Positions 1 through 54,111 of a DNA stretch of 64,000 bases are shown here, one piece after another. The notes under the pieces are model-generated. The model made no database searches. It saw only the letters and a list, made by a program, of their open reading frames with translations, and was not told the origin of the DNA. The position numbers were made by a program, and so were the translations under genes. The stretch comes from Escherichia phage inny: sequence record MN850601.1. One strand, given 5' to 3'. How positions within the stretch are numbered: the stretch's first letter is position 1; each line of letters starts with the position of its first letter.

Positions 1-100
1 CAAAATCCAGCGGTTTGTCTGTTACTGTGTTCAGTGCGGAAATAGACAGACCATCACCAGAAATCAGGGTTACGCAAGATTTGAAATTTTTAGCAAACAT
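1..100 (-). CDS. hypothetical protein, 5' portion only (gene continues past window start)
   Basis: minus-strand ATG at 100..98 with GAGGAG Shine-Dalgarno upstream; frame open to coordinate 1. Confidence 0.35.
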   Translation of the reverse strand, partial: MFAKNFKSCVTLISGDGLSISALNTVTDKPLDF

Positions 101-110
101 AGTTTTCTCC

Positions 111-389
111 TCAAATAATAACTACAAAATATTTTACACCATCATATTCGACAATATGATCAGGATATTTAAATCCTTTATAAGATTTACCAAACAGACT
201 AACAGCCTCATTAGCTTTGTTTTGCGGATTACTCAGCCACTGTTCTTCTGTGTAAAACTTAAACTCTGTTCTCTTACCTTCTTTTTCTAAACCAACAATT
301 TCCTGTGTGATATCTTCAATACCTGCATTCTTCAAGGATTTGATTACCTGACGCAAACCGTGTTTAAAGATATCTTCTGCTGTTAACAT
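111..389 (-). CDS. hypothetical protein (92 aa)
   Basis: ORF track; minus-strand ATG at 389 preceded by GGAGG; tightly packed with neighbours. Confidence 0.5.
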   Translation of the reverse strand: MLTAEDIFKHGLRQVIKSLKNAGIEDITQEIVGLEKEGKRTEFKFYTEEQWLSNPQNKANEAVSLFGKSYKGFKYPDHIVEYDGVKYFVVII

Positions 390-402
390 AATACCTCCAA
401 TA

Positions 403-420
403 AGCCCCCGAAGGGGCTTT
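403..420. terminator. GC hairpin AGCCCCCGAAGGGGCT, intrinsic terminator candidate
   Basis: perfect GC stem just downstream of the stop of the 426..1148 gene; T-rich run on plus strand; same hairpin in reverse complement recurs at 48041..48056. Confidence 0.5.
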
Positions 421-425
421 ATTTC

Positions 426-1148
426 TTAAGCAATGATTGCTGCGATATTAGGTTTAACAAAGGTAGATGGTTTCATAATTTTACCTTTGTCATCAAAGAA
501 TACGTATACCTTTTGAACTTCGTTATATACAGCATGTACCCCAGTATAAGAACCTTCTGCACGATCTTTGCTTCGCATCTCGATAGCATCGCACTCTTTT
601 TCAAGAGCTTCAATAATATCCTTAGTTTCCCAAATAGCCAGGAGTTGCTTCTTGGTAGGATACTTGGACTCATTGCTATTCAACACTTCACGCATAACCT
701 TCTTCTCGTTATAAACAGAACGCACCAAAGTATCTCGTGCCATACGGGTAAGTGTAAGAGACATTAAGGCAAATTGCAAGTCATTTTCTACCATTTTATC
801 AAATTCAATGATAACATCGTAAATGTTCTCTGCCAGAACATCTCCTGTTGGCATTTCCAGAGCTTTATCAACACCTTCTTTACCAAAGAACATAAATGCC
901 AGGTAGGATGCTACCACAAAAATATCTGCTGCTGCATCAAGTAATTCAACGTGATCATTTTCCTGTGCTGCTGCTTGAAACTCTTTAAGTTCTTCTCGTA
1001 CAAAAGAAAGTTGAGCTTCAAACATCTCTTGAGTAAATTCTGGGGTTACTCCACCACGTGCCTTAGCATTCCAAGCAACAATTTGATCGGCAGTTTTGAT
1101 AAAGAAGCTATTGTCCACTTTTACTTGTTTGAAAAAATTCTCGATCAT
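426..1148 (-). CDS. putative nucleotide pyrophosphohydrolase (MazG-like) domain protein
   Basis: 240 aa; acidic helix pair REELKEFQAA / HVELLDAAADIF resembles MazG/HisE-type NTP pyrophosphatase metal-binding helices; motif-level call only. Confidence 0.4.
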   Translation of the reverse strand: MIENFFKQVKVDNSFFIKTADQIVAWNAKARGGVTPEFTQEMFEAQLSFVREELKEFQAAAQENDHVELLDAAADIFVVASYLAFMFFGKEGVDKALEMPTGDVLAENIYDVIIEFDKMVENDLQFALMSLTLTRMARDTLVRSVYNEKKVMREVLNSNESKYPTKKQLLAIWETKDIIEALEKECDAIEMRSKDRAEGSYTGVHAVYNEVQKVYVFFDDKGKIMKPSTFVKPNIAAIIA

Positions 1149-1157
1149 TGTTTCTCC

Positions 1158-1337
1158 TTATTTAAAATATTGTTCTAACAAAACACTAATGCGAACTACC
1201 GATTCGCCCATATACGCCCCAGCACAGAGGAAAACAACAAATCTACAAAAATTGCAGTACCATTTGTCCACTGGAAACGAGGCTAACATTATAATTGCAA
1301 TAGCAATTAACATCATAAGAACTGTTACTAATACCAT
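1158..1337 (-). CDS. small hydrophobic membrane protein (59 aa)
   Basis: ATG at 1337 with AAGAGG SD; long hydrophobic segment VLVTVLMMLIAIAIIMLA; ORF track 1158..1364 trimmed to first SD-backed ATG. Confidence 0.4.
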   Translation of the reverse strand: MVLVTVLMMLIAIAIIMLASFPVDKWYCNFCRFVVFLCAGAYMGESVVRISVLLEQYFK

Positions 1338-1345
1338 ATTACCTC

Positions 1346-2461
1346 TTACTCTGCTGGTTCCCAAGTACCTGGAATCATCTTACGTACACGTACCCCAACA
1401 GGCTTGGTAGGAATACCTTCGTCTGAAAATTCTTCGTACTCTATTTCAACAAATTGACCAATAAGTGTCAAAGCATTTTCTTCTTTACGATAGTTAATGG
1501 TTTCATCTGAATCCTTACGCATCAGGAATTCGACTACTTTACCATTTTCCATCTCTCCTGTCAATACCCCGTCACCATTTTTATCACGCTTTGCACTTAC
1601 CACTTTAACTTCAAGCGTCTGCCGTGGTTTACGTTTAATAACATCATAAGAACGTTTATCGAATTCGTAAACACCTTTTGCGTTACGATACACCACACCT
1701 TCCGCTTTCTCACGTAGAGCTTTTGCATAGAAAGCATCAAACTGTTCTTGGTTTTCAATGTACTCTGTATGTACTACACAAATAAGTTCATCTAAACCTT
1801 TATCTTCAACAACTTCTTTTAGAGCAGCCAAAACTTGAACCCTCTTCTCAAATGGTACAGATGCCACAGGAACATCATATACATAGTATTTAAGAAGTGG
1901 TGTGTTAGCATTATGCTTTTTCCACGCACTATTAATTTGTTGAAGGCTAAGGACACCCAAACCAGCAAAAACTTCACCGTCAAGAGGATGACCAACTACT
2001 TCTTTAATGAAGGTTGGAATTTCTTCCCAGTGAGGTGGAAGTTTATATACCTCCCCAGCTTTAGATAAACATTCACCTTGCATGTTAATCATTGAACGTA
2101 GACCATTCAATTTATATTGTGCATAACCAGGGAACAAAACACGATCAGCATAATCTTTATAATCCTGACATTTCATGGGTGTGGAAGGAACATGGTTTTC
2201 AGCTTCCTCTTTTGTTTTATAGTACCCATTCTTAAGTTGCTTTGTCCATTTGGCAAGAGCTTCTATTTCAGCTTGTTCTTCTGCTGTTGTTTCATTTGAG
2301 CGACCAATATTTTTAGGTTCTGCCGTATAAGATTTGCTAGTGATCTTTCCACCTAATTGACCATGAGCAACAGTTACAACACTACCTTCGGTATAGACTG
2401 ACCACTGTCTAATTTTACCTGTAGAAGTTTTACCATATAATGTAGGATTAGTTTGTTTCAT
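1346..2461 (-). CDS. ATP-dependent polynucleotide ligase (putative DNA ligase)
   Basis: 371 aa from GGAGG-backed ATG at 2461; nucleotidyltransferase motif I candidate YKLNGLR (K-x-[DN]-G-x-R); ORF track start 2509 judged an upstream extension overlapping the previous gene. Confidence 0.6.
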   Translation of the reverse strand: MKQTNPTLYGKTSTGKIRQWSVYTEGSVVTVAHGQLGGKITSKSYTAEPKNIGRSNETTAEEQAEIEALAKWTKQLKNGYYKTKEEAENHVPSTPMKCQDYKDYADRVLFPGYAQYKLNGLRSMINMQGECLSKAGEVYKLPPHWEEIPTFIKEVVGHPLDGEVFAGLGVLSLQQINSAWKKHNANTPLLKYYVYDVPVASVPFEKRVQVLAALKEVVEDKGLDELICVVHTEYIENQEQFDAFYAKALREKAEGVVYRNAKGVYEFDKRSYDVIKRKPRQTLEVKVVSAKRDKNGDGVLTGEMENGKVVEFLMRKDSDETINYRKEENALTLIGQFVEIEYEEFSDEGIPTKPVGVRVRKMIPGTWEPAE

Positions 2462-2651
2462 CTTTAACCTCCAGTTGCGAAAGAACCCATTTAGCCATTT
2501 CAATTTCACCGTGTAGTCTGCCTAGTTCATAGGCATCATCAATATTACCACCAGTGTAATCATCCACCATAAAGTAAGGATCTTCACTACTGTTAGGCGC
2601 GTTTGCAATTCTCGTTAGTTCTTCAATAAATGTCATAGTTAACCTTACCAA
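2448..2651 (-). CDS. hypothetical protein (67 aa)
   Basis: ORF track; stop overlaps ligase start region; compact operon spacing. Confidence 0.4.
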   Translation of the reverse strand: MVRLTMTFIEELTRIANAPNSSEDPYFMVDDYTGGNIDDAYELGRLHGEIEMAKWVLSQLEVKDETN

Positions 2652-2869
2652 TTATACACAAGAGTTTGAATTTCTTCCATCAAATCTTCAAGATCTGTAT
2701 CAACATATTCAGAAGATGTTGCCATAAAGTATGTAATCATTGTGAACCCTTCCGAAGAAAGGGCATCAAGGATATCATTAAACATATCTTCCATTTCAGT
2801 ATTCTCACCAAATGAAAATAACATTTGTTGATCTTCGCTTACACCTTTAACATAGATAGCTGTGCTCAT
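2645..2869 (-). CDS. hypothetical acidic protein (74 aa)
   Basis: ORF track; tight coupling with flanking ORFs. Confidence 0.4.
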   Translation of the reverse strand: MSTAIYVKGVSEDQQMLFSFGENTEMEDMFNDILDALSSEGFTMITYFMATSSEYVDTDLEDLMEEIQTLVYNW

Positions 2870-2872
2870 ATA

Positions 2873-3193
2873 TTAATCCTTAAGACGTTCATTTAAATCT
2901 GCAATAACATCATTTAAATCTTCACATTCCAGTGTTAACTCTGAAACTTGTTCATTCAAACAAGAAACTTCTTCATTTAGATCTGAAATAATGTTTTCTA
3001 ATGAATCTACTTGATCATCATATGAACGTTTTGTTTCTTCAAGGTCTTCCATAAGACTATCAATCAAATGCAGCAAAGATAAGATATAGCCGTCTCCTGT
3101 TTCGTTCCTCCACTCACTTCCGTAGCGATAAATAATAATTTCACCATCATCGACTACTGTAAAATACTTACCTTTACCAGAATAAATTTCCAT
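2873..3193 (-). CDS. hypothetical protein with acidic coiled-coil C-terminus (106 aa)
   Basis: ORF track; heptad-like acidic repeats (DSLENIISDLNEEVSCLNEQVSELTLECEDLNDVIADLNERL). Confidence 0.45.
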   Translation of the reverse strand: MEIYSGKGKYFTVVDDGEIIIYRYGSEWRNETGDGYILSLLHLIDSLMEDLEETKRSYDDQVDSLENIISDLNEEVSCLNEQVSELTLECEDLNDVIADLNERLKD

Positions 3194-3202
3194 AAACTCT
3201 CC

Positions 3203-3607
3203 TTATTGTAGCTTAAGTGAACTGCGAAGACGTTCCTCTTGCTGATCACGAATATGTTGTGGAACCTCATGAATTGAATCGTTACCGTGCCTATTCTCCA
3301 CAACTAAAGAAATAACTTGATAACCAAACTCTTCAGCAAGAGTTAAATAAGGTTTAAGTTCTTTTTCTGTAGTAGAGGTATTAGAAACAATAATCTTTTC
3401 AACACCATACTGCATATATTTTTGTACTTTGACACGACACCATTGGTGTGCTTTATGGATATTCTCTTGTTTCCACTCATACACACCATCTTCAGTGTAG
3501 TGGTATTGATCTGCCTCACAAATAGGCCAATGATTTTCAGAGATAATTTCTGCTACTGTAGATTTACCTGCACCTGAAACACCACGTAAAATGATAAGTT
3601 GTTTCAT
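3203..3607 (-). CDS. P-loop kinase (putative polynucleotide 5'-kinase)
   Basis: 134 aa; Walker A GVSGAGKST at N-terminus; stop/start directly adjacent to the ligase-like gene upstream. Confidence 0.55.
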   Translation of the reverse strand: MKQLIILRGVSGAGKSTVAEIISENHWPICEADQYHYTEDGVYEWKQENIHKAHQWCRVKVQKYMQYGVEKIIVSNTSTTEKELKPYLTLAEEFGYQVISLVVENRHGNDSIHEVPQHIRDQQEERLRSSLKLQ

Positions 3608-4540
3608 TTAGCCTCCAAAGAAGTTTTCTATTTCTTTACGTCGCTCTTGTGGATCGAGAGCAGCCCATTGAGCCTTCGTAAATTTATTTCGAAGCCATTC
3701 TAGCAAAGTATAATATTCTTCGTCAACAATTTGTTTAGCATTGTTTGGGTTGTCCCAAATCATATCCCACTTCTTATTGCCACCACGCATAAGGAATTTC
3801 TTAGCAAGATAGTATGGTGACTTAATCTTTAAGAGTAAGTTAAACGGATAGTTTGTTTCACGAACAACAAAGCCTTCGTGTCTACAATGTTTAGACATTT
3901 CAACAACATCTGAAAATTTAATCATTGGATAAACTTCAGGACGTTTAAATTTTGTAATAGATGCAATCCCATCAAGAACACCTTCAGGTAACATGAAACT
4001 TGTCCCATCAAGATTTTGAATTCTTGCTCCAATTAAGTATGCGCCTGGTTCTTCTTCGACAATATGTGGATCAGAAGGATCACAGATTTCAAAAAGGAAA
4101 GTTGCTTTTGCACTTTCTGTCCACTTAATGAAATACTCTATGTCATCACACTCGGAAACAATACGGTTCTTGGCAATAGTTGCAAAGTCTGACTCTAGGC
4201 TCCCTGTTGTTGATACAACAAGTTGCCCTTTGTACACACCTACAGATGCCATAAAACCGTTTACTTTACGGACAGCATCTACAAATTCATCTCCTGGAAG
4301 ATCTGTACCATTCTCAAAACGATTAAAGATTTTAGTAAAAGGCCAAATAACAATATTATCTTCTGAATCAACAACCAACCCACGACAATCTAAAAGTCGT
4401 TTGTCAACGTTCCACAAGTTATCCCAGAATACATTGTTTTTGTATTTAAGTACAGCAAGACCAGCATACTCTCCAGATTTAACTTCTTTTTTATGCACTA
4501 AACCTTTTGCAATCAGGTCATCACAATTGAACTTAGCCAC
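3608..4540 (-). CDS. nucleotidyltransferase, RNA ligase-like
   Basis: 310 aa; candidate motif I lysine in RKVNGFM; flanked by kinase and metallophosphoesterase genes. Confidence 0.5.
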   Translation of the reverse strand: MAKFNCDDLIAKGLVHKKEVKSGEYAGLAVLKYKNNVFWDNLWNVDKRLLDCRGLVVDSEDNIVIWPFTKIFNRFENGTDLPGDEFVDAVRKVNGFMASVGVYKGQLVVSTTGSLESDFATIAKNRIVSECDDIEYFIKWTESAKATFLFEICDPSDPHIVEEEPGAYLIGARIQNLDGTSFMLPEGVLDGIASITKFKRPEVYPMIKFSDVVEMSKHCRHEGFVVRETNYPFNLLLKIKSPYYLAKKFLMRGGNKKWDMIWDNPNNAKQIVDEEYYTLLEWLRNKFTKAQWAALDPQERRKEIENFFGG

Positions 4541-4541
4541 C

Positions 4542-5093
4542 TTAATCTCCTTTGATTATCTTATGATGATCTACAACAATAATATCACGCTTATCCATAA
4601 TAGAGATGATTTCGTCAAAATGTAAGATTTTCCCGTGTGCATCCCAACCAACATCCAACATTTTCCCATACAAATGATCAGGGAATGATCCGTGAGAGTG
4701 TCCGTGTAGCATGATTGATCCATGCCCTTGTTTATTCCAGGCAGCCATAGGGTAATGACTTAAGACGAAGAACAGCTTCTGATATTTCACTTCGTCATAA
4801 TACACAACTTCTCCATACTCTGCAAGCACTTTTCTGTGTTTACTGTAATCATGGTTCCCAACACAGTAAGTAATATCCCCTTGGAGACGGGAAGCAATCT
4901 TACGGGTATCTTCTTCAGTCCCGAAACAGAAGTCCCCAAGATGGTACATCTTTACTCCTGGTGTTGTGGCACATTTATTCCATGCTTCGATCAGTGCTTC
5001 TGTCATATGCTCCATATCTTCCCACGGGCGATATTCAGGAGCAAACTCTCGGATACGTTTGTGCATAAAATGCAAATCACTTGTAATAAACAT
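4542..5093 (-). CDS. calcineurin-like metallophosphoesterase
   Basis: 183 aa; MPP signature motifs in canonical order: SDLHF, LGDF, VGNHD, LHGHSHG. Confidence 0.75.
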   Translation of the reverse strand: MFITSDLHFMHKRIREFAPEYRPWEDMEHMTEALIEAWNKCATTPGVKMYHLGDFCFGTEEDTRKIASRLQGDITYCVGNHDYSKHRKVLAEYGEVVYYDEVKYQKLFFVLSHYPMAAWNKQGHGSIMLHGHSHGSFPDHLYGKMLDVGWDAHGKILHFDEIISIMDKRDIIVVDHHKIIKGD

Positions 5094-5455
5094 TAGTATA
5101 ATCCCTCGCTGAATAGTTCACTGTTGTGACCATTTCTTTCGTAGTTAATTTGTTTGGCGTTATCTGCAATGATATAAGCATCTTTGCGACTCCACCAGTT
5201 ATAATACTGATCAATAAACCCTTGATTATCAGGTAAGCAAAACAGTTTATCAATCAATCCTGCATCTTTTAAAACATTAAGTTGTGCAGATAGTACAGGA
5301 TTTGCATGCCTAACACAAGGAATAATTAACTCTTCGCCATTATTGAGAATATACTTATTCGCAGCGCAGACTATAACACGTTGAGCATAGTGATCCTCAC
5401 CAAGCCAAGTAAGAGGTTGGTAACAAATATCATGTTGATTAGTAGCGCACATCAA
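5093..5455 (-). CDS. hypothetical protein (120 aa)
   Basis: ORF track; start overlaps stop of next gene. Confidence 0.5.
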   Translation of the reverse strand: MMCATNQHDICYQPLTWLGEDHYAQRVIVCAANKYILNNGEELIIPCVRHANPVLSAQLNVLKDAGLIDKLFCLPDNQGFIDQYYNWWSRKDAYIIADNAKQINYERNGHNSELFSEGLY

Positions 5456-5601
5456 TTTTCTCCATACTCTTTTAATCTATCAGCGAAAAAACTGTAATCA
5501 GGAAGTAAAAGATCATTACTCGTATCGCTACAGTTTTCTTCCTCTTTATAGATAAAATGCCCTTCATCCTCTTCTTGCTCTGACCAAACTGAGTAATGCA
5601 T
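5452..5601 (-). CDS. small acidic hypothetical protein (49 aa)
   Basis: unlisted short ORF read by eye; ATG at 5601, stop overlapping the ATG of the 5093..5455 gene (ATGA-type coupling); weak SD. Confidence 0.25.
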   Translation of the reverse strand: MHYSVWSEQEEDEGHFIYKEEENCSDTSNDLLLPDYSFFADRLKEYGEN

Positions 5602-5610
5602 AATACCTAC

Positions 5611-5952
5611 TTAATAGTTAACACGTTTAATTTCAACACCATAGGATGAAATAAAATTTTCCTTAGCTAACATATATTTACCAGCAGCAGAAGGATTTGA
5701 TGTATGAACATAGATAGTTTTAAGAGCATCCCATTCACCAGCGTACAACATACATTCTACATCTAAGAACGCATGATAGCCTTCTTGATCTTCTCCAAGA
5801 TCATTATCGAAGTGTATTTCTGAGATATTATTGAAATTATCTTCATCTGAAACAAAAGATGACCAATCCCCAAAAGATTTTAACCAAATGGCATCCTCAT
5901 AACCATAATCTTTAGGATCTCTTAAATCGTCTAACCAAATAATTTTAGCCAC
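5611..5952 (-). CDS. hypothetical protein
   Basis: ORF track 5611..5985 trimmed to GTG at 5952 preceded by GGAAGGGGG SD and lying 3 nt after the upstream gene stop. Confidence 0.45.
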   Translation of the reverse strand: MAKIIWLDDLRDPKDYGYEDAIWLKSFGDWSSFVSDEDNFNNISEIHFDNDLGEDQEGYHAFLDVECMLYAGEWDALKTIYVHTSNPSAAGKYMLAKENFISSYGVEIKRVNY

Positions 5953-5954
5953 TA

Positions 5955-6146
5955 TCAACCCCCTTCCTGTTTCTCTTCTTTCCAAGTTTTACCTTTATCT
6001 ACCAATTGCTTAGAAACAGCAAATCTTTCTCCATTGACATAAAACAGATAAAGAATAAAGGATTTTCCTATAGTTACAGTATCTACTACTTCTACACGCT
6101 TTACACCTTGCATGTATTTGGCTTTACCTGAATAAATAAGGAACAT
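5955..6146 (-). CDS. hypothetical protein (63 aa)
   Basis: ORF track. Confidence 0.4.
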   Translation of the reverse strand: MFLIYSGKAKYMQGVKRVEVVDTVTIGKSFILYLFYVNGERFAVSKQLVDKGKTWKEEKQEGG

Positions 6147-6424
6147 TATTTATTCCTTTTGTTGTTGATCACATCTAAAGCTGTATAAGGTTTGTTTGTA
6201 CCGCTGTATTCAAGAATAATTGGTGCATGTTCATAGACAAACTCAAAAGTACCATACACAGAATCTGCAACTGAAATAAGCATTTCAGTGCCTTCATCGT
6301 TCTTAATTAATGAAAACCTTGCCCCTGGTTTATTGAGCACTTCATATTTCTTACCTACTGTCAGCAAACCTGAATACCATTCATTTTGCACAACAGACAA
6401 ACACTTCAGATAGGTTTTTCTCAT
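6146..6424 (-). CDS. hypothetical protein (92 aa)
   Basis: ORF track; start overlaps upstream stop. Confidence 0.5.
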   Translation of the reverse strand: MRKTYLKCLSVVQNEWYSGLLTVGKKYEVLNKPGARFSLIKNDEGTEMLISVADSVYGTFEFVYEHAPIILEYSGTNKPYTALDVINNKRNK

Positions 6425-6762
6425 TTCTTTTTGCTCCTTCTTTTAGGCTTCTCGTATAAACCTAACACAGCAGACTCTTTTGCACAGATAGGAACTGACT
6501 TCATTCCTCGTTTTTTGGCTTCTGGTAGATTCAAAACCCACCAGCCAAACCAATACAATTCATCTTCTGTGAAAGGATCTGCCATAGGATCTGCATCACG
6601 TTCTTCAAATTTAGCAAGAGCTTCTTCTATCTTTTCTATTGGAGTATCAAAGACAAAAGCCTCTGTGTCAAATTTTTGTTTCTTAGGAGCGGCCTTTGCC
6701 GCCCCCTCTTTAGATGCGTGCTTTGTTACGGATCGCTTCTTCGGTGTTTTCGCCATCAACAA
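6421..6762 (-). CDS. hypothetical protein with lysine-rich N-terminus (113 aa)
   Basis: ORF track; basic N-terminal tail (KTPKKRSVTKHASKEGAAKAAPKKQK) suggests nucleic-acid binding. Confidence 0.5.
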   Translation of the reverse strand: MLMAKTPKKRSVTKHASKEGAAKAAPKKQKFDTEAFVFDTPIEKIEEALAKFEERDADPMADPFTEDELYWFGWWVLNLPEAKKRGMKSVPICAKESAVLGLYEKPKRRSKKK

Positions 6763-6949
6763 CCTCCATACGGTGTAAGAAATCTTGCTGGAATCGCCAA
6801 TACTGTTGACCAGTCCTTACATCTTCGTAGATCACAACAGGATCAAACACTTTAGATACACCCGCTGGTTTAGGAAAACCAACTACACGATATAAACCAC
6901 CTTTACTAATACAAGAATATGTTACATCAGTTAAAATTTCTTTTTTCAT
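6710..6949 (-). CDS. hypothetical protein (79 aa), start uncertain
   Basis: ORF track; overlaps downstream gene by about 50 nt. Confidence 0.35.
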   Translation of the reverse strand: MKKEILTDVTYSCISKGGLYRVVGFPKPAGVSKVFDPVVIYEDVRTGQQYWRFQQDFLHRMEVVDGENTEEAIRNKARI

Positions 6950-7143
6950 TTTTTAATAAACTCCAAAACAGGTACGTGATCAGCAGTCAAAGTTACACAA
7001 TTGTAACTTACCTTTTCAACTTCAGAGAATGCTTCAACCCAAAGCAAGAAATTCTCTTTAGCTTCTTCATAATTCAATGTTGACTTAACAACATGGAACT
7101 CACCAAGAATTACTCTATAGATTGTTTGCATAGTTTGATTCAT
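6946..7143 (-). CDS. hypothetical protein (65 aa)
   Basis: ORF track. Confidence 0.4.
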   Translation of the reverse strand: MNQTMQTIYRVILGEFHVVKSTLNYEEAKENFLLWVEAFSEVEKVSYNCVTLTADHVPVLEFIKK

Positions 7144-7209
7144 TTATTTTTCCTTTGTTTAAAATGTGTTAAACAATCGCAAATGCTCGTGACGCACTTT
7201 GTGATCCCA

Positions 7210-7578
7210 CTAATTAACGTCAGCACTATGATTGTTGAGAGTATAGGATACTCCATCGCCCAAGTCAACATGAATCTCAACTCCTAACTGTCTTTCTAAT
7301 GGTAAACGTTTTGAGAATTGATAATTACAAAGTTTGCAATCTAAGTCAAGCAACTCATGTTTGCTTAAACCTGGGATGATAACTTTGCTTCCCACTGTCC
7401 ACTCAATACCTTCAAAGTTATCTCTTCTTTTCAAAATGTCAAGTAAGAAGATGATTTGTTGCCATTCCGTAGACAAGTCTTCTTCATAGAACGCAGAACA
7501 AAAAGTTTTATCATCGTAGAAAGCATACATTATGCCTCCATCTACTGTTTCACTTCTAACGTAACGTGTGACCCTCAT
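7210..7578 (-). CDS. hypothetical protein (122 aa), first gene of the minus-strand block
   Basis: ORF track; AGGAGGG SD upstream of ATG at 7578. Confidence 0.5.
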   Translation of the reverse strand: MRVTRYVRSETVDGGIMYAFYDDKTFCSAFYEEDLSTEWQQIIFLLDILKRRDNFEGIEWTVGSKVIIPGLSKHELLDLDCKLCNYQFSKRLPLERQLGVEIHVDLGDGVSYTLNNHSADVN

Positions 7579-7931
7579 TATTCCCTCCTGTATAGCTCTG
7601 TAACGAGCTAATGGCCTTTAAGATATGCAATCACCTTACCTCACAGTAAAACTCGTTACAATCGTTTTTAGGAGGTTTAGGTTGTACTTAAAAATAATCT
7701 AAAAAGGTGTTGACAAACGCAAAAAAGTATGCTACCCTAACCCCCGAAAAACGCCGAGCGCAGCGAGGGGGTGTTATCTAATCTTGTGATACATGATCTA
7801 ACAGACAACTGAGTAGTCTACATATAGCACTATGTTATGTCTATAATACTAACATACATACTCTATACTAACAATAGATTCTTTATTAATTTTATTATTA
7901 ATTAAATAATAAATTAAATAATAAATATCTA

Positions 7932-7960
7932 TTGACTTTAGATCTATCTGTATGTAGAGT
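7932..7960 (+). promoter_or_regulatory. sigma70-like promoter TTGACT-N17-TGn-TAGAGT
   Basis: -35 at 7932..7937, TG at 7953..7954, -10 at 7955..7960; 40 nt upstream of the prs-like gene. Confidence 0.55.
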
Positions 7961-7999
7961 AGAGAACATAAAGTCCTAACTCAACTAAGGAGATAAACA

Positions 8000-8893
8000 A
8001 TGAAAGTTAGTATTCTACATGGTGTTGACTGTTATGTTACTGATGTAGACGTTAAAGTCTTTACATTCTCTGGTGGAGAACAACATGTTCAACTAGACAC
8101 GAATCTATCAGGTTTCAATCATGCTACAGACAGAATCTTACTCTCTTTAGAAGTAAGATCTGCTAAAGACTTGATGACTTTGGTTATGACTAAGAATGCA
8201 TTGGACAATATGCTATATCATAAACCATATTGTGTTGATTTACTCATGTTGTATGTGCCGTATGCACGACAAGACAGAGTGTGTGAGCCTGGGGAAGCAT
8301 TCGGAGTTAAAGCCTTTGCTTCTATAATTAATTCATTAAATTTCTCACGTGTTATCGTTGCTGATCCACATAGTGATGTTACTCCGGCAGTGTTTGACAG
8401 ACTCTGTGTAATACCTCAAGAAGAGATTGCTTACGAAACTTTAAAGTGGAAGTTACGTATGGAGAATTTTGCTCTTGTTAGTCCTGATGGTGGTGCTCTT
8501 AAGAAAATATTTAAATTATCTAAGAAAATGTCTTTAGATGTGTTCTGTGCAGAGAAGGTTAGAGATACTGCAACAGGTGCTATTGTTCGTACAGACATTT
8601 CTGTACAGGATTTCAATAAGCGTAACCTGATGATCGTAGATGATATCTGTGACGGCGGTAGAACTTTTATTGAATTGGCTAAAGTGCTACGTGCTCGTAA
8701 CGCAGGTAAGATTGAGTTATATGTTACACACGGTATCTTTTCTAAAGGTCTTAAAGAGTTAAGTGAGCACTTTGACTGCATTCATTCTCTTAATGTGTGG
8801 GAAGATAACATCCAAGAAGATTCCGGTGTTCTTGTTAAGAATCAGTCAGATTTGCAACAACAAATTGTATCTCCATACGTGTGGAATTTTTAA
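8000..8893 (+). CDS. prs: ribose-phosphate pyrophosphokinase family protein (Prs-like; possibly an ADP-ribose pyrophosphokinase)
   Basis: 297 aa; Prs hallmark YVPYARQDR and PRPP-binding loop NLMIVDDICDGGRTF; AAGGAG SD. Confidence 0.85.
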   Translation: MKVSILHGVDCYVTDVDVKVFTFSGGEQHVQLDTNLSGFNHATDRILLSLEVRSAKDLMTLVMTKNALDNMLYHKPYCVDLLMLYVPYARQDRVCEPGEAFGVKAFASIINSLNFSRVIVADPHSDVTPAVFDRLCVIPQEEIAYETLKWKLRMENFALVSPDGGALKKIFKLSKKMSLDVFCAEKVRDTATGAIVRTDISVQDFNKRNLMIVDDICDGGRTFIELAKVLRARNAGKIELYVTHGIFSKGLKELSEHFDCIHSLNVWEDNIQEDSGVLVKNQSDLQQQIVSPYVWNF

Positions 8894-11445: not shown

Positions 11446-11521
11446 GGTTCCATAGCTCACTGACGAGAGCGCACACCTCATAAGTGTCGAGGGCAGGGAT
11501 TGTAACCCTGGGGAACCACCA
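11446..11521 (+). tRNA. tRNA-Met/Ile2-type (anticodon CAT), non-canonical T-loop
   Basis: hand-folded cloverleaf: acceptor GGTTCC/GGAACC, D-stem GCTC/GAGC, anticodon loop CTCATAA, encoded CCA; T-loop ATTGTAA (A54, T58) instead of TTCGAAT. Confidence 0.6.
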
Positions 11522-11552
11522 TTTAAAAGGAGGTGCTATGCATCTCCTATAT

Positions 11553-11638
11553 GCAAGTGTGGTGGAATTGGTGATACACATTGTGCTTAAAACGCAACGC
11601 TTAAATGATTGAGGGTTCGAATCCCTCCACTTGCACCA
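11553..11638 (+). tRNA. tRNA-Leu (anticodon TAA), type II
   Basis: acceptor GCAAGTG/CACTTGC, 3-bp D-stem, anticodon loop CTTAAAA, long variable arm, T-arm GAGGG-TTCGAAT-CCCTC, A73, CCA. Confidence 0.85.
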
Positions 11639-11640
11639 AC

Positions 11641-11746
11641 GCCTAGTAGGGTATTTGGTAATTCCGAGGCCATCAAAGCCTGAAAAATATGTTAGACCGT
11701 TTTGTCTAACTAAATACGAAATATGGTTCGATTCCATAACTAGGCT
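11641..11746 (+). tRNA. atypical 106-nt tRNA-like element (candidate anticodon TCA)
   Basis: perfect 7-bp acceptor GCCTAGT/ACTAGGC, D-like arm with GG loop, 4-bp stem with loop CATCAAA, extra 7-bp hairpin GTTAGAC-CGTTTT-GTCTAAC, canonical T-arm TATGG-TTCGATT-CCATA; no CCA encoded; too long for a standard tRNA. Confidence 0.3.
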
Positions 11747-11781
11747 CCCGATTTAAATAGTAATTTTTTAATAAAAATATC

Positions 11782-11810
11782 TTGACATTTACTTAGTTTT
11801 TTGTTATAGT
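11782..11810 (+). promoter_or_regulatory. sigma70-like promoter TTGACA-N17-TATAGT with extended TG
   Basis: -35 at 11782..11787, TG at 11802..11803, -10 at 11805..11810; 12 nt upstream of the tRNA at 11822. Confidence 0.6.
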
Positions 11811-11821
11811 CATTATGAAAA

Positions 11822-11903
11822 CGGGGTGTATCTCACCTGACTTCTAATCAGGCGTTAACCGAGTAATTGGAGTATGCAGGTTCGAATCCTGTCACCCCGG
11901 CCA
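11822..11903 (+). tRNA. tRNA-Arg-like (anticodon TCT) lacking a canonical D-arm
   Basis: acceptor CGGGGTG/CACCCCG, only 7 nt (TATCTCA) before a perfect anticodon arm CCTGA-CTTCTAA-TCAGG, 23-nt variable region with CCGA-GTAA-TTGG hairpin, T-arm GCAGG-TTCGAAT-CCTGT, G73, CCA. Confidence 0.45.
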
Positions 11904-11921
11904 AAAAGTTTTAAAAACTAC

Positions 11922-11951
11922 TTGACAAGCAAGATAGTTTTATGTTAGATT
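11922..11951 (+). promoter_or_regulatory. sigma70-like promoter TTGACA-N17/18-TTAGAT
   Basis: -35 at 11922..11927, TG then -10 around 11945..11951. Confidence 0.55.
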
Positions 11952-11966
11952 TAAAGTATGGTAACA

Positions 11967-12056
11967 GGAAGGTAGGGCGCAGCGGTGCGCAACCAGGTTT
12001 GAACCCTGGCCCATTGTAGCGATACGGTGATGGTTCGACTCCATTATCTTCCTCCA
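11967..12056 (+). tRNA. tRNA-Ser (anticodon TGA), type II
   Basis: acceptor GGAAGGT/ATCTTCC, anticodon arm CCAGG-TTTGAAC-CCTGG, 19-nt variable arm, T-arm GATGG-TTCGACT-CCATT, CCA. Confidence 0.85.
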
Positions 12057-12075
12057 AATTCGCTTAGGAGCTTTA

Positions 12076-12227
12076 TGAATTATAAAACTATTGGACAGAT
12101 TGTTACCGGAGTTAAGATTGTAAATAATAAAGTTGTTTATGAGTATTCTAATCTTCAACAATCTGAAGATGGTAAGAATATTCGTATGGTAAAAGCAGAA
12201 CAAAAAGATTCCGGTTGTTTTGAATAA
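12076..12227 (+). CDS. small hypothetical protein (50 aa)
   Basis: ORF track 12027..12227 starts inside tRNA-Ser; trimmed to ATG at 12076 behind TAGGAG SD. Confidence 0.3.
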
Positions 12228-12235
12228 TTAAGAAC

Positions 12236-12321
12236 GGTAGATTGGTGAAATGGTAGCCACAACAGTTTGCTAAACTGTCGTCGGAAACGGCGTGTAGGTT
12301 CAAGTCCTACATCTACCGCCA
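12236..12321 (+). tRNA. tRNA-Ser (anticodon GCT), type II
   Basis: acceptor GGTAGAT/ATCTACC, 3-bp D-stem GTG/CAC, anticodon arm ACAGT-TTGCTAA-ACTGT, long variable arm, T-arm GTAGG-TTCAAGT-CCTAC, G73, CCA. Confidence 0.85.
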
Positions 12322-12377
12322 AGTTATCTTTAATGTAGCTTGTTGCTCTTAGTTGCTTGGTGTAACTTTTTGGAAGG

Positions 12378-12439
12378 ATGGCTGCAACCATCTTACTTTA
12401 ATAGAGTAAACTTTCGGCAGATGGCCCCCACCATCTTAC
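12378..12439 (+). repeat. two near-identical hairpins (GGATGG-loop-CCATCTTAC), spaced about 45 nt
   Basis: 12378..12397 AAGGATGG-CTGCAA-CCATCTT and 12422..12439 AGATGG-CCCCCA-CCATCT; both followed by TTAC; stems resemble the T-stem of the upstream tRNA-Ser. Confidence 0.5.
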
Positions 12440-12491
12440 CGATACCTCATAGTTAGTGGTGCGAACACTGGCTATTTTAAAGATAATTTAT

Positions 12492-12567
12492 ACATCGTTA
12501 GCTTAGTTGGTAGAGCAAGGGGCTTTTAACTCCAAGGTCGAAGGTTCGAATCCTTCACGATGTACCA
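12492..12567 (+). tRNA. tRNA-Lys (anticodon TTT)
   Basis: perfect acceptor ACATCGT/ACGATGT, D-arm GCTT-AGTTGGTA-GAGC, anticodon loop CTTTTAA, T-arm GAAGG-TTCGAAT-CCTTC, A73, CCA. Confidence 0.8.
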
Positions 12568-12572
12568 AACAC

Positions 12573-12659
12573 GTAGGTATCGCATAGCGGCAATTGCTGG
12601 AGACTGTAAATCTCCTGCCCTTCGGGGCTTCGTTGGTTCGAGTCCAACTACCTGCACCA
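12573..12659 (+). tRNA. tRNA-Tyr (anticodon GTA), type II
   Basis: acceptor GTAGGTA/TACCTGC, anticodon arm GGAGA-CTGTAAA-TCTCC, variable hairpin GCCC-TTCG-GGGC, T-arm GTTGG-TTCGAGT-CCAAC, A73, CCA. Confidence 0.85.
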
Positions 12660-12666
12660 AATTAAA

Positions 12667-12751
12667 GATGGATTGGCCTAGTGGTTGGGCGACGGACTGT
12701 TAATCCGTGAACGAAAGTTCTAGCAAGGTTCAAATCCTTGATCCATCGCCA
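12667..12751 (+). tRNA. type II (Ser-like architecture) tRNA with anticodon GTT (Asn-type)
   Basis: acceptor GATGGAT/ATCCATC, 3-bp D-stem GCC/GGC, perfect anticodon arm ACGGA-CTGTTAA-TCCGT, 15-nt variable arm with GAAC-GAAA-GTTC hairpin, T-arm CAAGG-TTCAAAT-CCTTG, G73, CCA. Confidence 0.7.
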
Positions 12752-12830
12752 AATAGTGCTTGTAGAGTTAATAGAAACCTCTAGAATTTTCTAGAATTGT
12801 AGGTATCAAATCCTACCAAGCAAATATTTT

Positions 12831-12905
12831 GCTCCTATCGTATAACGGCTATTACGGTTGCCTTGTAAGCAACTTATCAGGGTTCGAGTCCTTGTGGGAG
12901 CACCA
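12831..12905 (+). tRNA. tRNA-Thr (anticodon TGT)
   Basis: acceptor GCTCCTA/TGGGAGC (one G-U), anticodon arm GTTGC-CTTGTAA-GCAAC, T-arm CAGGG-TTCGAGT-CCTTG, A73, CCA. Confidence 0.8.
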
Positions 12906-12927
12906 ATTTAACTCTAAAGGAGTGTAT

Positions 12928-13251
12928 GTGACAGAAAAAGAGTTAGAGAAATATTTTAATATCAATGTTTTCGATGGTTTTGATGATATTGAAGATGTTG
13001 AAAGATATTATGAAGTAGAGTTAGATAAGGATAACATTGTAATTCTTTCTGCCACTTATGATTGTGCATATTATGAAGGCGAATCTCACGTTTATTTCTA
13101 TGATATGAAAACATCTTTGTTTTATGAAGTACACGCATATCATTGTTCTTGTTATGGCTTAGAAGGTCAGTGGGAACCTGAAGAAATAGGTGATTTGAGC
13201 TTTACGGTTGCATATCTAAACAGACGTGGTGCATCTACTATTTTAAAATAA
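12928..13251 (+). CDS. hypothetical protein (107 aa)
   Basis: ORF track 12829..13251 begins inside tRNA-Thr; trimmed to GTG at 12928 behind AAGGAG SD. Confidence 0.5.
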   Translation: MTEKELEKYFNINVFDGFDDIEDVERYYEVELDKDNIVILSATYDCAYYEGESHVYFYDMKTSLFYEVHAYHCSCYGLEGQWEPEEIGDLSFTVAYLNRRGASTILK

Positions 13252-13265
13252 ATATTAAAAGCCTC

Positions 13266-13295
13266 TTGACAAAGGGGCTAATAATATGTTAGAGT
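13266..13295 (+). promoter_or_regulatory. sigma70-like promoter TTGACA-N18-TGT-TAGAGT
   Basis: -35 at 13266..13271, TG at 13287..13288, -10 at 13290..13295; upstream of tRNA-Gly. Confidence 0.55.
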
Positions 13296-13306
13296 AATAT
13301 TGTTAA

Positions 13307-13381
13307 GCGGGTATAGTGTTAATGGTAGCATATGAGGTTTCCACCCTCCAGGTGCAGGTTCAAGTCCTGTTACTCGCTCCA
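13307..13381 (+). tRNA. tRNA-Gly (anticodon TCC)
   Basis: acceptor GCGGGTA/TACTCGC, anticodon loop TTTCCAC, T-arm GCAGG-TTCAAGT-CCTGT, U73, CCA. Confidence 0.8.
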
Positions 13382-13480
13382 AGATTATTTAAATGGAATC
13401 GCTAGAGAAAATTTCTCTTTTCGCTCATGGTTTTCTCCTTCAAACTCTAGCGGTTCTTTTTAAGTGATTTTTAGTTTTAT

Positions 13481-13555
13481 TGGAGATTAGCCTAGTGGGA
13501 AGGCAACGGCCTTTGAAGTCGTGATGACTAGGTTCGATTCCTAGATCTCCAGCCA
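13481..13555 (+). tRNA. tRNA-Gln (anticodon TTG)
   Basis: acceptor TGGAGAT/ATCTCCA with U1-A72, D-arm GCC-TAGTGGGAA-GGC, anticodon arm ACGGC-CTTTGAA-GTCGT, T-arm CTAGG-TTCGATT-CCTAG, G73, CCA. Confidence 0.8.
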
Positions 13556-13562
13556 ATATTTA

Positions 13563-13638
13563 CAGTGCGTAGCGCAGTTGGTAGCGTGGGAGCCTTGGAC
13601 GCTTCAGGTCGCAGGTTCGAGTCCTGCCGCACTGACCA
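13563..13638 (+). tRNA. tRNA-Pro (anticodon TGG)
   Basis: acceptor CAGTGCG/CGCACTG, D-arm GCGC-AGTTGGTA-GCGT, anticodon arm GGAGC-CTTGGAC-GCTTC, T-arm GCAGG-TTCGAGT-CCTGC, A73, CCA. Confidence 0.85.
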
Positions 13639-13643
13639 AATTT

Positions 13644-13718
13644 GCAGAGATAGCTGAGACGGATTAGTGCTACCCTGAAAAGGTAGAAAGGATGGATCGT
13701 TACCATCTCTCTGCACCA
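13644..13718 (+). tRNA. tRNA-Phe (anticodon GAA), non-canonical T-loop
   Basis: perfect acceptor GCAGAGA/TCTCTGC, perfect anticodon arm CTACC-CTGAAAA-GGTAG, T-arm GATGG-ATCGTTA-CCATC (A54 and T58 swapped relative to consensus), A73, CCA. Confidence 0.7.
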
Positions 13719-13795
13719 GATAACACCATCCAAGGAGAATACTTGGTTAACTGTCAATAGCACATTGAGGCTTCTTACAGTGGTGTACTTATTAT

Positions 13796-13880
13796 GGCTA
13801 AGTGGTGGAATGGTATACACGATACGCTTAGAACGTATTGCCCCAAGGGATTGTGAGTTCGAGTCTCACCTTAGCTACCA
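13796..13880 (+). tRNA. tRNA-Leu (anticodon TAG), type II
   Basis: acceptor GGCTAAG/CTTAGCT, 3-bp D-stem GTG/CAC, anticodon arm ATACG-CTTAGAA-CGTAT, variable hairpin, T-arm GTGAG-TTCGAGT-CTCAC, A73, CCA. Confidence 0.85.
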
Positions 13881-13895
13881 AATTATTACAGGTTT

Positions 13896-13974
13896 CGCGG
13901 GATAGAGGAGTCTGGTCGTCCTCGCCAGTTTCATATGCTGGAGATCGTAGGTTCAAATCCTACTCCCGTTACCA
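13896..13974 (+). tRNA. tRNA-Met/Ile2-type (anticodon CAT), second copy, unpaired 1-72
   Basis: acceptor CGCGGGA/TCCCGTT with C1 opposite U72, D-arm GAGG-(11 nt)-CCTC, anticodon arm CCAGT-TTCATAT-GCTGG, T-arm GTAGG-TTCAAAT-CCTAC, A73, CCA. Confidence 0.65.
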
Positions 13975-14032
13975 ATAAATACCTCCCTTCTGGTGTAATG
14001 ATTAAATTACATTGACACTTCAAGGAACTCAT

Positions 14033-14115
14033 AGCCGGGTAGATTTAAAAGAGTATGGTACTCAATATGGCTCCAAACCATAGATCAGGGGGTTCGATTC
14101 CTCACCTTGCTGCCA
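14033..14115 (+). tRNA. tRNA-Trp-like (anticodon CCA) with expanded D region
   Basis: anticodon arm TATGG-CTCCAAA-CCATA, T-loop TTCGATT, G73, CCA; best acceptor AGCCGGG/CCTTGCT has one C-U mismatch and leaves about 9 extra nt before the D-stem GAGT/ACTC. Confidence 0.4.
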
Positions 14116-14120
14116 ATTAT

Positions 14121-14196
14121 TGTGGTATCGTACAGATGGTTAGTACACTCGACCGATAATCGAGAAACAACGGTTCGACTCCGTTTACCACGACCA
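14121..14196 (+). tRNA. tRNA-Ile (anticodon GAT)
   Basis: acceptor TGTGGTA/TACCACG, D-arm GTAC-AGATGGTTA-GTAC, anticodon arm CTCGA-CCGATAA-TCGAG (C33), T-arm AACGG-TTCGACT-CCGTT, A73, CCA. Confidence 0.75.
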
Positions 14197-53517: not shown

Positions 53518-54111
53518 TTAAATTTTAAATTCTTCATTGTTAAATGAATCCAGTGTACGTACTTCTGGTTCTTTGGGAATGAAAACGTCTTTTACAAAAC
53601 GGAACATAGGGAAACGTTCTGCCATTTTACGGACGTGTGCTTCTTTACCCGTGTATCGGTGATTAATAGTACAAATATTAGTTTTCAGTGCAAATTCAAA
53701 ATCTGGATGATATACGTAATTTTGACCATCCCAGTAACACAAGCAAATAGCTACATCAAAGTTCCATACGATTTCACTGCGTACACCTTCTTCCATGATC
53801 ATAAAGTTAAACTTAAGATCTTTATAGTATGCTTCAAATACCCATTTCAAATGTGGTAGTTCGGCATAAGTGTGTTCTGTTTGCTTAGTAAGTTGTTTAA
53901 CATTACGTGCACCAACACCCAACATCAAAAATTTCTCTACTAGTACGAGTGTATTGTGGTTAGGCATACGCAAGTAAATATCAATATCTTGCGCAGGTTT
54001 CTCTAATCGCCAGTCACGTACAGCGCCGCCAGCTACAATTGCAAACGGATCTACCAGTTGGCACATACGTAATACTTCTAAAGCTCGTACTTTTTGATCT
54101 TCAATATTCAT
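53518..54111 (-). CDS. Pol-beta-superfamily nucleotidyltransferase, CCA-adding-enzyme head-domain-like
   Basis: 197 aa; N-terminal IVAGGAVRDWRL...DIDIYL matches the GG(A/S)VRD...DxD motif of class II tRNA nucleotidyltransferases. Confidence 0.5.
   Translation of the reverse strand: MNIEDQKVRALEVLRMCQLVDPFAIVAGGAVRDWRLEKPAQDIDIYLRMPNHNTLVLVEKFLMLGVGARNVKQLTKQTEHTYAELPHLKWVFEAYYKDLKFNFMIMEEGVRSEIVWNFDVAICLCYWDGQNYVYHPDFEFALKTNICTINHRYTGKEAHVRKMAERFPMFRFVKDVFIPKEPEVRTLDSFNNEEFKI

Follow-up and report, generated by a model that had tools for sequence, protein, structure and literature searches.

A predicted RNA repair cassette of ligase, kinase and metallophosphoesterase genes in Escherichia phage inny

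Do three adjoining minus-strand genes at positions 3203-5093 of Escherichia phage inny (sequence record MN850601.1) encode a system for mending broken RNA? We analysed a stretch of 64,000 nucleotides of this record, hereafter the window, in which an earlier note made from the letters alone had read these genes as an RNA repair triad of ligase, kinase and phosphoesterase. Anti-phage systems that cut tRNA are numerous, among them PrrC, RloC, PARIS, retron effectors and OLD, and phages counter them with spare tRNAs and with RNA repair. To our knowledge, studies of phage repair enzymes have been all but limited to those of T4.

Our analysis indicates that the cassette is probably a split 'heal-and-seal' RNA repair module, in which a kinase, a metallophosphoesterase (MPP) and a ligase are encoded by separate genes. 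The ligase and the kinase are homologous to enzymes of this kind and their active sites are conserved, the metal site of the MPP is intact, and the genes are linked, and in places fused, across many phages. The substrate of such a module would be tRNA, the MPP would tend the 3' end, and the biological purpose would presumably be to undo the damage done by host ribonucleases.

Three abutting genes and their products

The phage is a phi92-like Escherichia myovirus of the genus Justusliebigvirus, the first 9 kb of the window being 99.2% identical to EmilieFrey and 97.8% identical to phi92. The cassette consists of three tightly abutting open reading frames (ORFs) that correspond to phi92 gp097, gp096 and gp095, with gene calls that are identical in the annotated records of phi92, Paula and Eryne. 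All three minus-strand ORFs of the earlier note were recovered exactly:

4542..5093, minus strand: MPP, gp097, 183 amino acids (aa), matching phrog_547 phosphoesterase (8.5e-55); candidate 2',3'-cyclic phosphodiesterase or 3'-phosphatase
3608..4540, minus strand: predicted Rnl1/Trl1-type ATP-dependent RNA ligase, gp096, 310 aa, with a GTG start, matching PF09511 (5.6e-14)
3203..3607, minus strand: predicted stand-alone P-loop kinase of the polynucleotide 5'-kinase type, gp095, 134 aa, matching AAA_33 (1.8e-10) and phrog_505 'polynucleotide kinase' (1.3e-9)

A single base separates the MPP and ligase genes (TAA-G-GTG), with AGGAG inside the 3' end of the MPP gene, and the ligase and kinase genes meet with no gap at all (TAA-ATG), with GGAGG inside the 3' end of the ligase gene. 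Such 1-base and 0-base junctions, with Shine-Dalgarno sequences lying within the upstream coding ends, are consistent with the translational coupling that had been proposed. The stop codon of the next gene upstream, gp098, in turn shares bases with the MPP start (TAATG), which extends the apparently coupled block beyond three genes. Over positions 1-8200, promoter-like sites were no more numerous than expected from shuffled sequence (33 vs 28 ± 4.3), and the sole convincing hairpin, at about 402-419, coincides with a terminator annotated in phage Paula; the same scan found no convincing terminator hairpin within the cassette. This is compatible with, and lends support to, a long co-directional block.

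The motifs that had been picked out by eye (DLH, GDF, GNHD and HGHSH in the MPP, KxNG in the ligase and a Walker A motif in the kinase) are all present in the three proteins. For the ligase, the match to Pfam PF09511 (RNA_lig_T4_1) reaches 53.0 bits against a cut-off of 28.3 and covers model positions 2-227 of 227, and among the PHROGs it falls in phrog_562, the T4 gp63/Rnl1 family, at 7e-67. A plain sequence search of the PDB with this single sequence returned chance matches only. We took the T4 rnlA sequence from the T4 genome for comparison by hhalign, which aligned ligase residues 47-246 with T4 Rnl1 residues 48-248 (96% probability, E 2e-9) and showed that 13 of 15 functional residues of T4 Rnl1 are kept. 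The aligned pairs (ligase/T4 Rnl1) include R53/R54, K70/K75, F72/F77, K92/K99, G95/G102, E151/E159, R173/R182, E222-G223/E227-G228, K238-K240/K240-K242 and Y244/Y246. We take the T4 positions to be essential on the strength of mutagenesis, and the residue identities were confirmed in the T4 sequence. Across 20 ligase homologues, R53, K70, F72, K92, G95, E151, R173, E222, G223, K238, K240 and Y244 are invariant, and nucleotidyltransferase motifs I, III, IV and V are complete, including the catalytic lysine K92. At the Rnl1-specific positions (T4 R54, K75, F77, K119, R182 and Y246) five of the six residues are kept, the exception being K119, which is Thr112 here. Motif I reads K92-V-N94-G95; this KxNG is presumably the Trl1 form of the motif, that of T4 being KEDG.

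The AlphaFold (AF2) model of the ligase, with a predicted local distance difference test (pLDDT) score of 90 and a predicted template-modelling (pTM) score of 0.86, points in the same direction. In a Foldseek search of the PDB, the ligase domain of Candida glabrata Trl1 was the best match (5e-13) and T4 Rnl1 came close to it (~1e-12), matches to Trl1-LIG and T4 Rnl1 together spanning 5e-13 to 2e-11. Archaeal Rnl3 followed at 1e-10 to 1e-8 and T4 Rnl2 at 1e-6, while the best DNA ligase scored ~1e-5 and the majority of DNA ligases 1e-4 to 1e-3. With RNA_lig_T4_1 as its family and Trl1-LIG and T4 Rnl1 as its nearest folds, the protein is therefore not a member of a DNA-ligase-only or capping-enzyme family. 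We predict that gp096 is an active Rnl1/Trl1-type RNA ligase, its active site being intact, although the sequence does not disclose which substrates it prefers.

The kinase has a P-loop, G9-VSGAG-K15-S16, and it is at this P-loop only that the deoxynucleoside monophosphate (dNMP) and thymidylate kinase families match it. When a 23-member profile of the family was run against the PDB, the best relatives were RNA-repair polynucleotide kinases, namely Pnkp1 (4XRP, 8.5e-6) and the kinase domain of Clostridium thermocellum Pnkp (CthPnkp; 4GP7, 8e-5), with two fungal kinases and T4 polynucleotide kinase (4e-4) also among the best. By hhalign, gp095 aligns with the full kinase domain of T4 Pnkp, residues 1-149 (97%, E 7.5e-11), which sets K15, S16 and D33 against T4 K15, S16 and D35, the last being the general base; the lid arginines pair less cleanly, with R106 opposite T4 R122. 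No HAD (DxDxT) phosphatase domain was detected in the protein, which ends at residue 134. Hence gp095 belongs neither with complete Pnkp proteins nor with the dNMP kinases, and we predict that it acts as a stand-alone kinase of the Pnk type.

It could be argued that the kinase and the ligase act instead on DNA ends, together with the DNA ligase encoded nearby, or that the ligase is a tail-fibre attachment factor like T4 gp63. The cassette does lie amid replication, recombination and nucleotide-metabolism genes, T4 Pnkp acts on DNA as well as on RNA, and the PHROG name of the ligase includes 'tail fiber protein attachment catalyst'. Nevertheless, we give these proposals almost no credence. Both fold and family of gp096 are specific to RNA ligases, DNA ligases being far weaker matches, and a dedicated DNA ligase is already encoded. 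The adenylyltransferase residues, needless for a purely structural or chaperone role, are invariant throughout the family, and the ligase is consistently paired, and at times fused, with a polynucleotide kinase.

The MPP contains the motifs D6-L-H8, G53-D54-F55, G79-N80-H81-D82, H113 and G131-H132-S133-H134. In 28 homologues D6, H8, D54, N80, H81, H113, H132 and H134 are invariant, and the binuclear-metal site is complete. Its match to Pfam Metallophos_2 (E 4.8e-4, 20.6 bits) lies under the 27-bit cut-off, and a profile hidden Markov model (HMM) of the family found only Aquifex aq_1665 (1XM7) in the PDB, at E 1e-21. The AF2 model (pLDDT 94) adopts the MPP sandwich fold, and Foldseek again placed 1XM7 at the top of the PDB matches (E 3.7e-9, TM 0.72), with Mre11, MPE, LpxH and MJ0936 next at ~1e-4. 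Lambda phosphatase ranked 34th (E 0.011) and the CthPnkp phosphatase fell outside the top 50. The suggestion that this protein is a 2',3'-phosphatase therefore stands as far as the MPP superfamily goes, on the metal ligands and the fold, and fails for the Pnkp-phosphatase clade, to which it is related solely at superfamily level. A role in healing 2',3'-phosphate ends is suggested by MPP chemistry in combination with gene linkage.

Linkage of the three genes across phages

Conserved neighbourhood provides the second line of evidence. A ligase of this family was found in 660 of 50,697 phage records (1.3%), and the hosts of these phages include Escherichia, Pseudomonas, Vibrio, Streptomyces, Klebsiella, Acinetobacter and Campylobacter. 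We sampled 80 IMG/VR loci with a ligase at 39-98% identity, scored their ORFs with local profiles, counted as neighbours the genes within 10 kb of the ligase, and grouped the ligases at 55% identity into 26 clusters. A kinase accompanies the ligase in 75 of the 80 loci (24 of 26 clusters) and an MPP in 64 (23 of 26 clusters). The order is MPP-ligase-kinase in 36 loci, as in phage inny, and kinase-ligase-MPP in 19; in Vibrio phage Chloris the triad runs ligase-kinase-MPP. Moreover, 12 loci encode kinase and ligase in one ORF of ~420 aa, a full-length kinase preceding the ligase, and such a fusion is a classic indication of joint function. Conserved linkage and fusion across such diverse phages thus support the view that these proteins work together. 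The conserved core across phages is the ligase-kinase-MPP triad.

The fusions are found in uncultured phages (L054, L055, L061 and L065-L073), an example being L055:9581-10846. A further ligase of L055, OB-fold and Rnl2/5-like (PF09414 plus PF21189), is followed by Prs-like and NAMPT-like genes.

The association was also viewed from the side of the MPP, in the 80 best MPP-homologue loci. A ligase is present in 41 of these and a kinase in 31, the ligase being far above its phage-wide rate of 1.3%. Nonetheless, a number of observations weigh against an RNA repair triad. Thirty-six of the 80 MPP-homologue loci are without ligase, kinase and NAD genes alike, and the 12 loci with kinase-ligase fusions are without this MPP. 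In a phi92-like contig of 153 kb (L089), the ligase and the kinase were lost together and the MPP and cREC genes kept; an unrelated 123-aa ORF with no Pfam match (L089:10525-10893) stands in place of the pair, and synteny is otherwise retained through cREC, gp098, MPP, gp094 and the DNA ligase. The MPP itself sits in the uncharacterised aq_1665 clade and not in the lambda-phosphatase/CthPnkp clade. As for the ligase, a 20-sequence family profile, run as a plain HMM search against the PDB, gave chance matches only and missed T4 Rnl1. N94 and T112 stand at the positions of T4 Rnl1 D101 and K119, and the helical C-terminal region (242-307) measures ~65 aa, compared with ~120 aa in T4 Rnl1, which makes a specificity for tRNA no more than putative. 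In the kinase, the position of T4 Pnkp Arg38, which we take to bind the acceptor phosphate, is occupied by His36, and by H or F within the family. Lastly, the literature searched yielded no enzymatic or genetic study of the ligase, the kinase or the MPP clade, and no experiments on an RNA ligase of phi92 or Justusliebigvirus.

The joint loss in L089, the fusions that lack an MPP and the MPP loci that lack a ligase identify the kinase and the ligase as the tight unit, with the MPP a frequent but separable partner. The earlier reading of the three genes as an RNA repair triad is thus borne out for the ligase, the kinase and the linkage, on profiles, fold and fusions, and is weakened at the MPP, which can part from the other two. 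Each of the computational checks named in the earlier note came out in favour of its central reading.

It may even be that the kinase and the ligase repair RNA by themselves and that the MPP is an independent phosphoesterase with a nucleotide, an ADP-ribose-derived compound or a signalling nucleotide as its substrate, the genes being adjacent because counter-defence and nucleotide-metabolism genes tend to cluster. That about half of the MPP-family loci have no ligase or kinase would then follow, as would the survival of the MPP in L089 and its absence from the fusion loci, and the fold is nearer to the uncharacterised clade and to LpxH, MJ0936 and SapH, which are diesterases or pyrophosphatases, than to the Pnkp phosphatase. 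Yet 23 of 26 divergent ligase clusters keep an MPP within a few kilobases, in two orders, which is unlikely without selection, and in phage inny the MPP gene is apparently coupled to the ligase gene in translation. Furthermore, 7 of the 39 ligase-less MPP loci have an Rnl2/5-like RNA ligase instead. On balance, we regard an independent MPP as rather unlikely.

If the cassette is indeed a heal-and-seal module, its working can be sketched from the characterised relatives of its parts. A single transcription unit, early or middle, would supply the three proteins. The damage would be done by a ribonuclease of the host, as a rule an anticodon nuclease, which would cut tRNA or another RNA and leave a 2',3'-cyclic phosphate and a 5'-OH. 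The kinase would phosphorylate the 5'-OH with the gamma-phosphate of an NTP by means of Lys15 and Ser16, with Asp33 as the general base, much as in T4 Pnkp. The MPP, if it acts like the corresponding domain of Clostridium thermocellum Pnkp, would open and remove the 2',3'-cyclic or 3'-phosphate to give a 3'-OH, and the cREC protein encoded upstream may assist in opening cyclic phosphates. The ligase would then be adenylylated at Lys92, pass the AMP to the 5'-phosphate and seal the break, as T4 Rnl1 does.

Neighbouring genes, tRNAs and NAD+ metabolism

The cassette lies among other genes that bear on its interpretation, as follows:

426..1148, minus strand: MazG-like nucleotide pyrophosphohydrolase, gp089 (PRA-PH, 3.2e-7; phrog_671, 2.4e-28)
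1346..2461, minus strand: ATP-dependent DNA ligase, gp091 (PF01068, 3e-11; phrog_114, 7.4e-75; NCBIfam DNA ligase, 1.3e-19)
5093..5452, minus strand: gp098, 119 aa, function unassigned (phrog_839, no Pfam match)
5611..5952, minus strand: cREC (cyclic-phosphate-processing receiver) domain protein, gp100 (PF20274, 4.1e-13)
8000-8893, plus strand: Prs-like gene (Pfam Pribosyltran/Pribosyl_synth)
8965-10698, plus strand: NAMPT-like gene (Pfam NAPRTase, 5.7e-38)
11446..14196, plus strand: tRNA array of 15-16 genes, including tRNA-Lys(UUU) (ARAGORN and Rfam)

Downstream of the cassette and on the same strand follow the DNA ligase, which we do not count with the RNA module, and the MazG-like pyrophosphohydrolase. 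The window thus holds one ATP-dependent DNA ligase and one member of the RNA-ligase family, in keeping with the division of labour that the earlier note had supposed for its two ligases. The longest ORF of the DNA ligase starts with GTG at 2509 (387 aa; 1346-2509); in all public records the gene begins at 2461 (371 aa), downstream of a GGAGG and overlapping the upstream gp092. On the other side, gp100 lies upstream of the cassette in the same direction, and in PVP-SE1-type relatives the cREC gene is found between ligase and kinase. One public record calls gp100 a 'nudix hydrolase', for which Pfam gives no support. For gp098, a homologue in Aeromonas phage TS3 (L005:11681-11986) has a precomputed Pfam match to PF26092 (T4_Y16D).

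Few of these neighbours travel with the ligase. Among the 80 ligase loci, a DNA ligase is close by in 32, MazG in 13 and gp098 in just 3; cREC occurs in 10 and SIR2 in 11, each in 2 of the 26 clusters. Sirtuin, cREC and MazG genes are restricted to a single supergroup of enterobacterial myoviruses. Both cREC and MazG therefore lie outside the widely conserved core, and gp100 is a lineage-specific accessory.

The tRNA array includes tRNA-Lys(UUU), the classical target of PrrC. The array proved smaller than the 18 genes once counted, since ARAGORN finds 15 tRNA genes and Rfam 14, with a union of 16. One tRNA, at 11822-11900, is seen by Rfam only, and tRNA-Met (11446-11521) and tRNA-Ser (11967-12056) by ARAGORN only. 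Nor could the CCA-adding-like enzyme proposed at 53518..54111 be upheld. This minus-strand ORF, phi92 gp158, adjoins the DNA polymerase and belongs to phrog_1614 'nucleotidyltransferase' (2e-34), but its match to the PolyA_pol head domain alone (E 0.0017) scores 19.1 bits where the cut-off is 23 and, at 197 aa, it is too short to be accepted as a canonical CCA-adding enzyme.

Divergent from the cassette lies the Prs-like/NAMPT-like pair, followed by the tRNA array. A NAMPT-like gene neighbours the ligase in 41 of the 80 loci and a Prs-like gene in 33, so that genes for RNA repair and for NAD+ rebuilding recurrently co-localise. The pair probably represents NARP1 (Adps/Namat) and serves NAD+ reconstitution rather than classical PRPP and NMN synthesis. 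NARP1 is a gene pair for NAD+ reconstitution discovered in BASEL phages (bioRxiv 10.1101/2024.02.11.579819), and its associated phosphatase, Adpp, has been shown to be a Macro-domain protein (2026 preprint). The module of phage inny thus lies next to tRNA genes as well as to a NARP1-like pair for NAD+ counter-defence.

This context bears on the substrate of the MPP. In Aeromonas phage TS3 the MPP gene lies close to Prs and NAMPT genes with no ligase present, as would suit an independent phosphoesterase; against this, the demonstrated phosphatase of NARP1 is the Macro-domain protein and not an MPP. We also considered whether the MPP might extend NARP1 as an ADP-ribose-1''-phosphate phosphatase, and rejected this, since Adpp is a Macro-domain protein and since Chloris has a Macro gene in its Prs/NAMPT operon in addition to an MPP gene beside the ligase and kinase. 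The Chloris stretch concerned (L004, OQ095916; 5533-15441) encodes a second MPP (249 aa), the triad, the Prs-Macro-NAMPT operon and an Rnl2-type ligase. That operon has the published NARP1-AP arrangement, and the 10-kb stretch is a dense counter-defence island.

The NAD+ genes also raise the question of whether repair might follow a route like that of Trl1, in which cREC or the MPP would open the cyclic phosphate to a 2'-phosphate, the ligase would seal an end bearing 2'-PO4 and 3'-OH, and the 2'-phosphate would be removed in an NAD+-dependent step. This would account for the neighbours that rebuild NAD+ and, in relatives, for the sirtuin. Trl1-LIG is the top structural match of the ligase, motif I has what we take to be the Trl1 form, cREC lies in the same gene block and NAMPT-like genes accompany half of the ligases. 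Relatives also have a SIR2 gene between the kinase and the DNA ligase, in line with the proposal of PMC9503650. However, no SIR2, KptA/Tpt1 or 2H enzyme was found in the window, by Pfam on small ORFs or in the annotation of relatives, and hence there is no candidate 2'-phosphotransferase. An rV5-type SIR2 gave a best E of 3 by tblastn against the window, SIR2 is likewise absent from the phi92-type loci L009 and L010, and the rest of the window holds structural and replication genes, none of which is annotated as Sir2, KptA or 2H. The scarcity of cREC and SIR2 among the ligase clusters speaks against such a route as well. In addition, the specificity of Trl1 for 2'-phosphate resides in arginines of its large C-terminal domain, which is much shorter here, and the Prs/NAMPT pair has a demonstrated role of its own in NARP1. 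We therefore hold the Trl1-like route to be very improbable.

Were the MPP a true partner in such a module, wider consequences could be considered. It is conceivable, although we put it forward tentatively and would lean slightly against it, that the aq_1665-type MPP is an unrecognised and widespread class of RNA 2',3'-phosphate end-healing enzyme, that the triad is the commonest form of phage RNA repair and that the ligase is intermediate between Rnl1 and Trl1. For this task T4 Pnkp has a HAD domain, bacterial Pnkp a lambda-phosphatase-like MPP and Trl1 a 2H domain; the aq_1665-type MPP would then be a further, independent recruitment. The minimal triad, which hundreds of phage genomes encode and which often lies beside NARP1, would hold the leading place among phage RNA-repair systems. 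Characterising the short ligase family, with its 660 phages and its consistent partners, would define the repair route of a substantial share of medium-sized phages, including therapeutic candidates and phages of the BASEL collection, and would also give the orphan aq_1665 phosphoesterase clade a function.

Comparison with known repair systems

The closest studied counterpart is the T4 pair of Pnkp (pseT) and Rnl1 (rnlA), which counters PrrC. The ligase of phage inny is of the same family, with a nucleotidyltransferase core and a helical C-terminal domain, and the kinase is homologous to the N-terminal domain of Pnkp, with the same P-loop and catalytic Asp; the heal-then-seal logic would likewise be shared. 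There are differences, however. The kinase is a stand-alone protein of 134 aa without the HAD phosphatase domain of T4 Pnkp, and the candidate for 3'-end healing is an unrelated binuclear metallophosphoesterase. The ligase has 310 aa compared with 374 aa in T4 Rnl1, its C-terminal domain being about half as long. The genes of the cassette are contiguous and, to all appearances, coupled, whereas pseT and rnlA of T4 lie several genes apart.

In the kinds of enzyme that it combines (a P-loop 5'-kinase, a metallophosphoesterase and an adenylyltransferase/ligase), the cassette resembles the bacterial Pnkp systems, that is, Clostridium thermocellum Pnkp-Hen1 and Pnkp1-Rnl-Hen1. Whereas CthPnkp is a single polypeptide, the cassette has three ORFs, each with a start and a stop codon of its own; its MPP belongs to the aq_1665 clade and its ligase is of the Rnl1/Trl1 type. 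No Hen1 methyltransferase was found among the annotations of the window and its relatives. The fungal and plant enzyme Trl1 (LIG-KIN-CPD) provides the best structural match of the ligase and also pairs it with a polynucleotide kinase, the two being fused in some phages. In these phage fusions, unlike in Trl1, the kinase precedes the ligase; there is no 2H cyclic phosphodiesterase, and the C-terminal domain is much shorter.

Finally, the gene neighbourhood itself has been described computationally. Iyer, Burroughs, Anantharaman & Aravind 2022 (PMC9503650) reported a sirtuin coupled to a T4-like tRNA ligase, cREC, a nucleotide kinase and MazG, in a neighbourhood that includes a calcineurin-like phosphoesterase and has Escherichia phage V5 and Proteus phage Mydo as its prototypes. 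An rV5-like locus shows this neighbourhood in full (ligase-cREC-SIR2-MazG, with SIR2 at 1e-26). The window has the tRNA-ligase-like, cREC, kinase, MazG and MPP genes together on its minus strand (426-5952), but the defining sirtuin is absent from it and from phi92-type loci. Records derived from phi92 already label gp096 as 'putative RNA ligase / RNA repair' and gp097 as 'putative phosphoesterase'. Our findings confirm this annotation and the published computational prediction and reveal nothing unexpected: the cassette is genuine but unremarkable, one more system of a familiar kind for which both an annotation and a computational prediction were on record, and it is a sirtuin-less member of the group described by Iyer and colleagues.

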